From a virus (lineage: Duplodnaviria; Heunggongvirae; Uroviricota; Caudoviricetes): a stretch of DNA of 7,471 nucleotides. This document shows positions 2,381 to 2,598 of the stretch, in pieces. The stretch is taken from the IMG/VR virus record IMGVR_UViG_2671180384_000010. One strand, 5' to 3'. The position numbers were made by a program, and so were the translations under genes. The notes beneath the pieces were generated by a model. That model was given only the letters and a program-made list of their open reading frames with translations, was not told where the DNA came from and searched no databases. How positions within the stretch are numbered: position 1 is the stretch's first letter; the number at the start of each line of letters is the position of its first letter.

Positions 2381-2598
2381 AAATGTCTCACAATTCAGAC
2401 GGTTGACAGTTGTCTGTTTTGCGGGGAGTTTGTTAAAAGAAACTGGCATGGTGAATCCCCCTGTGCGGAGGGGCAATCAGCGAGTAGGTATATGGGATAA
2501 TCGCGGATTCAGGTGCTGGTACTGAATTCACCGGGAGGCACCCGGCATCATGCAATGGCACATAGCGCCACTCTCCAGCCCTCTCCGGAGGGGCTTTT
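2381..2598 (+). other. Conserved structured non-coding element (copy A); candidate sRNA or regulatory leader
   Basis: Three near-identical copies in the window (also 5532-5786 and 6426-6656). Contains TTGACA (2403-2408) and GC-rich inverted repeats. Ends in a hairpin plus T-run. Reading frames are not conserved between copies. Confidence 0.3.
2576..2598 (+). terminator. Intrinsic terminator at the end of the conserved element (imperfect stem in this copy)
   Basis: CCCTC-TCCG-GAGGG hairpin followed by CTTTTCT. Copy A has one fewer C than the other copies, so the stem is shorter. Confidence 0.45.

Follow-up and report, generated by a model that had tools for sequence, protein, structure and literature searches.

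The stretch of DNA analysed here, a 7,471-base window from the IMG/VR tailed-phage (Caudoviricetes) record IMGVR_UViG_2671180384_000010, carries a Q antiterminator gene (PF03589), an N6/N4 DNA methylase gene, a tRNA cluster, a DUF1737 gene and a minus-strand IS3-family transposase gene, together with three copies of a structured element. An earlier note on this sequence had described the element as occurring three times, as a candidate small RNA (sRNA) and as unlike anything recognised. The repeat alignment bore out the number of copies (repeat family D1), which lie at 2363-2640 (copy A), 5509-5786 (copy B) and 6408-6685 (copy C); the block common to them runs from ~2376, ~5522 and ~6421, respectively, through the terminal hairpin. 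The element is, however, a known one. The Rfam search that the note had called for, made with all Rfam families, gave matches to RF02076 (STnc100) at 2417-2606 (123.6 bits), 5563-5752 (132.4 bits) and 6462-6651 (133.6 bits), with E-values of 1e-27 to 4e-30 and scores nearly three times the gathering score of 47 bits. In all three copies the match covered model positions 1-206 of 206, without truncation, and no other Rfam family reached threshold in the repeat region. It is essentially certain that all three copies belong to the STnc100 family of small-RNA genes. Matches to Trp_leader, P26, Plastid-ycf2 and Yar_3 fell below their gathering scores, lay on terminators or tRNAs, and were taken as chance.

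The copies had been understood as a local triplication. However, the window contains a run of eight Ns at 3923-3930 and a single N at 5787, and large parts of it are near-identical to one another (1-532 to 4060-4583, and 1738-2640 to 5783-6685). At the 5787 junction, the sequence 3′ of copy B is fused to the middle of a methylase gene. The window therefore consists of three fragments of lambdoid prophage late regions, joined by Ns within one draft assembly, which its gene content bears out. The three copies lie in these fragments, and their apparent triplication is an artefact of the joining. Distances between features of different fragments therefore carry no meaning.

The three copies are made up as follows, where P1, hairpins a and e, stem d and the pseudoknot are the parts of the common structure described below.

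2376-2445, plus strand: upstream block (promoter region) of copy A, with TTGACA at 2403-2408, TTGTCT at 2410-2415 and TGTTAAAAG at 2431-2439; predicted start at ~2445-2446
2446-2553, plus strand: structured core of copy A, with P1 formed by 2446-2453 and 2546-2553 (G-U at 2548)
2457-2473, 2476-2481 with 2515-2520, 2505-2529 and 2531-2545, plus strand: hairpin a, pseudoknot, stem d and hairpin e of copy A
2554-2604, plus strand: linker of copy A holding CACUCUCC (2569-2576) as seed candidate, then the terminator in weakened form (2577-2595 plus UUUCUGUG)
5522-5591, plus strand: upstream block of copy B, with TTGACT at 5549-5554, TTGTCT at 5556-5561 and TGTTAAAAG at 5577-5585
5592-5752, plus strand: RNA of copy B, with P1 (5592-5599 with 5692-5699), hairpin a (5603-5619) and hairpin e (5677-5691)
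5622-5627 with 5661-5666, and 5651-5675, plus strand: pseudoknot and stem d of copy B
5700-5723 and 5722-5743, plus strand: linker with seed candidate, and terminator (plus UUUAUAUU), of copy B
6421-6490, plus strand: upstream block of copy C, with TTGACA at 6448-6453, TTGTCT at 6455-6460 and TGTTAAAAG at 6476-6484
6491-6651, plus strand: RNA of copy C, with P1 (6491-6498 with 6591-6598), hairpin a (6502-6518) and hairpin e (6576-6590)
6521-6526 with 6560-6565, and 6550-6574, plus strand: pseudoknot and stem d of copy C
6599-6622 and 6621-6642, plus strand: linker with seed candidate, and terminator (plus UUUAUAUU), of copy C

The sequence landmarks listed in the earlier note were all located: the −35-like hexamer at 2403, 5549 and 6448 (TTGACA in copies A and C, TTGACT in copy B), the GC-rich CCGGG-AGGCA-CCCGG hairpin at 2531-2545, 5677-5691 and 6576-6590, and the terminal hairpin with its T-rich tail at 2577-2595, 5722-5743 and 6621-6642. 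All three copies end in intrinsic terminators whose U-tract is short or interrupted. Between the P1 strands the copies differ at one base only, position 2548, which is T in copy A and C in the others. The upstream block of copy B differs from those of copies A and C at six positions, and the terminator stem of copy A lacks one C that is present in copies B and C as well as in the homologue of ATCC 11775.

Homologues were collected by an exact-pattern scan with one genome per species. This gave ~100 genuine units from ~60 Enterobacterales species, in genera including Salmonella, Klebsiella, Citrobacter, Enterobacter, Kosakonia, Leclercia, Pantoea, Erwinia, Rahnella and Superficieibacter; high-GC matches outside the Enterobacterales were dropped as chance. 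Across the 71 distinct cores, the four nested helices were 91.5% paired, compared with 42-49% when the partner columns were slid, and the covariation score was 0.369, compared with 0.07-0.08. None of 500 shuffles reached the observed values. The covariation check proposed in the earlier note thus came out positive for P1 and stem d: both-side changes were seen at all eight pairs of stem d and at the four outer pairs of P1. Hairpins a and e gave no covariation signal because they are near-invariant in sequence across the ~60 species. Pairs of the G-U type were frequent (for instance, GU at pair 85-112 in 33 sequences), which fixes the plus strand as the RNA strand.

The core also contains a pseudoknot, in which the loop of stem d finds its complement in the 5-10 bases just 3′ of hairpin a. 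The paired sequences vary by lineage: AUCAGC/GCUGGU in the window, and AAGCCACA/UGUGGCUU, ACUGGAU/AUCCAGU and UUGAUC/GAUCAA elsewhere. In a MAFFT alignment, a column-wise count found only 41.9% of cells paired, with a higher value for a slide of +1; the register shifts between lineages, and tests that do not depend on register were therefore used. The duplex energy with the strand's own partner was −9.9 kcal/mol, compared with −6.9 kcal/mol for the partners of other members (permutation z = −12). In a second test, on 91 strand pairs (86 distinct strands), it was −6.4 kcal/mol for reversed partners and −6.2 kcal/mol for shuffled partners (Wilcoxon ~1e-12). This covarying pseudoknot is not drawn in the Rfam consensus for STnc100 and is not mentioned in the 2026 preprint on PasD and STnc100 (bioRxiv 10.64898/2026.05.13.724894).

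For copy C, the minimum-energy fold is the consensus structure (−69.2 kcal/mol, z = −2.4). The predicted fold of copy A departs from it (z = −0.44) because of two private mutations, the C-to-T change in P1 and the deleted terminator C, neither of which is found in the ATCC 11775 homologue. Copy A looks like a decaying copy, in a prophage that has also been struck by an insertion sequence (IS). Outside the core there is far less constancy: the tail 5′ of the terminator is hypervariable, the terminator sequences are unrelated between lineages, and one unit from the E. coli group (L094) combines an STnc100-type core with a PasD-type tail.

The relatives of the element point to where its transcript begins. 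PasD2 and PasD1 have been mapped at 741157-741328 and 1060260-1060432 of NC_011601 (PMC8550237), and their 5′ end is the G that opens GCAUGGUG, that is, the base of P1. In Salmonella LT2, RpoD occupies STnc100 promoters (PMC10794520). When we required the end of the −10 hexamer to lie 8-15 nucleotides (nt) 5′ of GGUG, a σ70 promoter scoring at least 8 of 12 and starting transcription at the base of P1 was present in 34% of homologues, compared with 3% of random positions in the same loci; several of these promoters consist of TTGACA, 17-18 nt and TAnnnT. The E. coli relatives share TGTTAAAA(A/G/T) ~10 nt 5′ of GGUG. In the window, the extended −10-like motif TGTTAAAAG lies 18 nt 3′ of TTGTCT, which adjoins the more obvious TTGACA. 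Given the PasD 5′ end and the fixed-distance promoters of the homologues, transcription of the window copies likely starts at the base of P1, at ~2445, ~5591 and ~6490. A promoter formed by TTGACA, 17 nt and GAGTTT was rejected: it fails the consensus scan, and its second hexamer is not kept, being GCATTT in a paralogue.

An inverted repeat, CAGAC (or CAGGC)-N11-GTCTG, spans both −35-like hexamers at 2395-2416, 5541-5562 and 6440-6461. According to the position of the transcription start, it may serve as an operator or form a hairpin in the RNA. A related palindrome, CAGTC..TGACAG/CTGTCAGACTG, is present in the paralogue from L103 and L001.

Several close relatives have been studied directly. 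In E. coli O157:H7 EDL933 there are 11 STnc100 copies, all of which are transcribed, and STnc100_4, of 191 nt, has been confirmed by northern blot (PMC5331693). EcOnc27/sRNA103 is the STnc100 copy downstream of stx2B, and was found to be Hfq-bound in Hfq cross-linking and analysis of cDNA (Hfq-CRAC; PMC7873438); its overexpression raises fimZ and espA transcripts (PMC12711010), and the stx2B-downstream copy has been found in outer-membrane vesicles (PMC12370729). The window copies resemble STnc100/EcOnc27 in their full-length match to the model, in having the same helices, in occupying the slot between Q or the tRNAs and the lysis genes, and in being multi-copy in prophage-rich E. coli. The Stx2-phage copy scores 208 bits on RF02076 and is ~70-77% identical to the window variant, which differs from it in a shorter variable hairpin and a different tail. 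In the Stx2a phage, stx2AB lies between the tRNAs and the element, which follows stx2B by ~75 nt and is itself followed by AsxR on the opposite strand, whereas in the window there are no stx genes between the tRNAs and the element. AsxR and AgvB (RF02703 and RF02702) had no match in the window at E-values up to 1. At least eight prophages of the Sakai strain have dyads of Hfq-binding sRNAs between the late promoter and the lysis genes (reviewed in PMC7873438).

A second group of relatives is formed by PasD1 and PasD2 of enteropathogenic E. coli (EPEC) E2348/69, known as EcOnc13 in enterohaemorrhagic E. coli (EHEC). Both were confirmed by northern blot and have ~20-25 partners each in Hfq RIL-seq, in which interacting RNAs are ligated and then sequenced; the target motifs predict the seed UGUGAG, located in the tail just 5′ of the terminator (PMC8550237, Table S6 and Fig. 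S5). A common ancestry of PasD1/PasD2 and STnc100 is the conclusion of the preprint cited above. We found that the window copies and PasD have the same architecture, from a P1 that begins with GCAUGGUGAAUCC through hairpin a and stem d, with a pseudoknot (in PasD, AAUGAUC pairing with GAUCAUU), to a tail and a terminator. They also share the same position in the prophage late region, with a DUF3927 gene upstream as at copy B. However, PasD falls short of the RF02076 gathering threshold, at 37.7 and 41.4 bits, and the 3′ half of hairpin e is missing from it; its tail is U-rich and carries the seed UGUGAG, and its terminator has U8. The window tail is AAUGGCACAUAGCGCCACUCUCCA, without UGUGAG; it contains CACUCUCC and leads into a different terminator. 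Judged by sequence, the window copies stand to PasD as a sister lineage rather than as members of it.

The element is common. Of the 5,426 E. coli genomes that are complete, 2,719-2,863 contain the window variant, with as many as 13-14 sites in a single genome. The variant also has matches in 285 phage records; most of these are Stx2 phages (70-77% identity), and the values are higher for Nil3 (98.6%) and mEp460 (96%). In K-12, the DLP12 region (quuD-nmpC-essD) has no STnc100 or ipeX-like unit at the Rfam gathering threshold. The usual order in complete genomes is Q, an optional methylase gene, tRNA Ile/Arg/Arg, STnc100, a variable segment, DUF1737, holin, lysozyme and Rz, where the variable segment holds an iraM-like gene on the minus strand in some cases and another STnc100 unit in others. 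The window has the order Q, methylase, tRNAs, element and DUF1737, with the element oriented as the late operon. The element is real, but it is an already catalogued, ordinary and very common prophage sRNA family, and the segment should be annotated as STnc100 rather than treated as new. Its interest lies in its relatives, which sit immediately downstream of stx2 and bind Hfq; these stx2-linked relatives overlap sequence features that predict haemolytic uraemic syndrome (PMC12711010).

Across genera, holin and endolysin genes downstream and a Q gene upstream, on the same strand, were found in 17-24 of 94 loci, and a tblastn search found E. coli phage-marker genes in 38 of the 90 loci from other species. 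Many units in Enterobacterales other than E. coli (L026, L035, L046, L066, L114 and others) adjoin ordinary chromosomal genes. In these 8-kb loci, which have no recognisable phage late genes, the neighbours include genes for a methyl-accepting chemotaxis protein, an alpha/beta hydrolase, a YdfG-like short-chain dehydrogenase/reductase, an NlpC/P60 protein, a peptidase M3 and a 2-hydroxyacid dehydrogenase. Once Pfam had revealed these housekeeping neighbours, we no longer regarded the family as confined to prophages. Units often stand in tandem, by twos or threes, as in Superficieibacter, Pantoea (on a plasmid), Erwinia, Leclercia and Kosakonia.

We consider it probable that the window element encodes an independently transcribed, Hfq-associated, trans-acting sRNA in which a conserved scaffold carries a swappable seed. 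The earlier note's proposal of an sRNA fits what was found: a structured non-coding gene with an intrinsic terminator and promoter-like upstream sequence, whose relatives give northern bands and in some cases are Hfq-bound. In the lysogen, the RNA would be made from its own promoter, starting at the base of P1, and would end at the terminal hairpin, giving a product of ~155-160 nt. The 5′ two-thirds would form a compact invariant domain, with P1 enclosing hairpin a, the variable hairpin, stem d and hairpin e and the pseudoknot locking the whole, and would act as a stabilising or recognition scaffold. The 3′ third would be a short, lineage-specific single-stranded tail followed by the intrinsic terminator. 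By analogy to PasD, CACUCUCC in the tail may pair with mRNAs in trans with the help of Hfq; both the Hfq and the seed steps are carried over from the relatives. During lytic growth, Q-modified polymerase would transcribe through the element within the late transcript, so that the processed read-through product suggested in the earlier note is possible under those conditions. It is less likely in the lysogen because a strong terminator follows the tRNA operon, and the homologue promoters and the PasD 5′ end favour a start of its own at the base of P1.

Several observations weigh against this interpretation. The consensus scan called no canonical σ70 promoter for the element in the window, and a canonical −10 is absent, in agreement with the weak −10 that the earlier note had remarked upon. 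The distance from TTGACA to the TAAAAG motif is 25 nt, and the alternative assignment, TTGTCT-18 nt-TGTTAAAAG, is offered as a proposal only. The transcript ends given for the window copies are placed by homology. The U-tract is interrupted (UGUUUAUAUU) in copies B and C, and the tail is not rich in A and U, so that PasD has the better Hfq module. The targets must also differ, since UGUGAG, the seed of PasD, is absent. Finally, an invariant pseudoknotted domain of five helices exceeds what a base-pairing sRNA needs, and this leaves room for another function.

That room could be filled without giving up the exchangeable seed. As a tentative possibility, the element may be a modular platform, in which the invariant, pseudoknot-locked five-helix domain has a partner of its own (a protein, the ribosome, an sRNA or a ligand) and the seed and terminator form an exchangeable cassette shuffled by lambdoid phages. 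A dedicated partner for the invariant core, if true, would be the sole novel aspect of the element.

It is rather unlikely that the conserved core is itself the functional part, serving as a site or decoy for a protein, sRNA or ligand in the manner of a sponge or a riboswitch, with a tail that only ends the transcript. The near-invariance of hairpins a and e and of the junction residues across ~60 species, while the surrounding stems covary, is what such a role would leave behind, as is a fold locked by a pseudoknot. Moreover, the neighbouring phage sRNAs AsxR and AgvB are sponges (PMC7873438), the invariant GGGAGG of hairpin e is Shine-Dalgarno-like, and several EDL933 copies have ribosome footprints (PMC5331693). 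However, the downstream gene is not conserved: among the non-phage loci examined, it is convergent in about one-third, and the genes on either side of the unit are mutually unrelated. No alternative pairing between core and terminator is kept across lineages, and the terminators themselves are unrelated between genera. These are not the features of a riboswitch or other cis-acting leader. In addition, the target contacts of PasD in RIL-seq are made through the tail region near the 3′ end (PMC8550237), and no ligand or protein partner of the core is known.

We think it improbable that the element acts in cis as part of the late operon, with the sRNA as a by-product, whether as a second terminator or insulator against read-through from the tRNA or stx promoters until Q acts, or as a processing or stability element. 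The element is always oriented as the late operon and, where Q and the holin or endolysin genes are found nearby, it lies between them; it is closed by a terminator, its promoter is weak in the window variant, and tandem units exist in several genomes. A strong terminator is, however, already present 5′ of copies A and C, a good promoter stands at a fixed distance in many homologues, and relatives reach high levels even when no prophage is induced. In other genera, over half of the loci lack recognisable phage late genes and place the unit beside housekeeping genes, and a terminator has no need of a covarying, pseudoknotted domain of 110 nt.

The coding capacity of the repeat was also considered. 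The earlier note had stated that an indel and a substitution between the copies break every reading frame. In fact, a 42-aa open reading frame (ORF) on the minus strand is intact in all three copies, as is a plus-strand ORF whose last 40 residues are the same in each copy, and the 1-nt deletion lies in the terminator of copy A. The conclusion drawn from it, conservation at the RNA level, nevertheless holds on other grounds: the repeated element is non-coding because the anchor-to-anchor distances of the core spread over all three frames (33, 37 and 30 of 100 homologues by length modulo 3) and the stems covary. We therefore give almost no credence to a small protein encoded by the minus-strand ORF, which PGAP annotates as a partial hypothetical protein, or by an ORF from the AUG in the 3′ strand of P1, despite the intact ORFs, the RefSeq pseudogene fragment and the ribosome footprints on some EDL933 copies (PMC5331693), as at most 44 of 100 homologues keep any one frame open, substitutions track base-pairing rather than codons, and other genera have GCA or ACA in place of the AUG. 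The same PGAP pseudogene lies on the minus strand across the STnc100/PasD unit at L001 5096-5221, L002 4095-4220 and L004 2198-2439; in view of the frame analysis, it is probably a spurious family built on an RNA gene.

The other features adjoining the copies are as follows.

2355-2380, plus strand: intrinsic terminator of the tRNA Ile/Arg/Arg operon, 5′ of copy A, with a 7-bp stem (six G-C pairs) followed by T8
6400-6425, plus strand: the same tRNA-operon terminator, 5′ of copy C
5366-5497, plus strand: DUF3927 small membrane-protein gene directly 5′ of copy B (Pfam PF13064, E = 1.7e-27)
2645-2783, plus strand: degenerate STnc100-like remnant 3′ of copy A (Rfam 21.8 bits, E = 0.17)
2784-3922, minus strand: IS3-family element (rve integrase core, HTH_21), with identical ends also at 7399-7471

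The position directly after the tRNA-cluster terminator, which the earlier note had given for the segment, applies to copies A and C only, with terminator hairpins at 2355-2372 and 6400-6417; copy B follows the DUF3927 gene. This gene, which encodes a small hydrophobic protein, stops 25 nt 5′ of copy B. The pairing of DUF3927 with a following sRNA is also seen 5′ of PasD1 and PasD2 in EPEC E2348/69, and recurs in 6 of the 94 loci.

In E. coli ATCC 11775, a degenerate remnant comes 3′ of the copy A homologue, and a second, divergent full unit (161 bits) comes after the remnant. In the window, the IS3-family insertion at ~2784 interrupts the STnc100 array 3′ of copy A, which accounts for the weak fourth Rfam match at 2645-2833. 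The remnant carries TTGACT and ACCGGGAAACCGGCATCACATG, and the counterpart array is found at L001 5310-5760. A second IS3-family insertion truncates the DUF1737 gene at 7258-7398.

The tRNA cluster is called as Met/Arg/Arg by ARAGORN and as Ile/Arg/Arg in RefSeq. In the middle fragment the central tRNA-Arg (tcg) is degenerate (4690-4790), and ARAGORN and Rfam call two tRNAs only, compared with three in the other fragments. Two cargo ORFs, which flank the sRNA copies, have no Pfam match: one of 111 aa at 6677-7012 on the minus strand, named anti-adapter protein IraM by RefSeq in identical loci, and one of 117 aa at 4977-5330 on the plus strand. At its 3′ end, the iraM-like gene overlaps with a long hairpin (6673-6708).

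A separate feature of the window lies directly 3′ of Q (424-532 and 4465-4583), where a lambda-like late promoter (TTGATT, a 16-nt spacer and TAAATT) is followed by AACGATGGG, which we take to resemble the σ70 pause element of lambda pR′. At this unit, Rfam gave nothing beyond sub-threshold Trp_leader matches. In both post-Q units, the intrinsic terminator AACCCGCCGCCGAGCGGGTTTTTT lies 3′ of AACGATGGG, and the unit would yield a short pR′-tR′ transcript of the StxS or 6S type. Lambda 6S RNA and StxS resemble the STnc100 element in being short terminated RNAs of the lambdoid late region that are read through once Q acts; the STnc100 element, however, lies 1.9 kb downstream of this unit, is unrelated to it in sequence and is far more structured.

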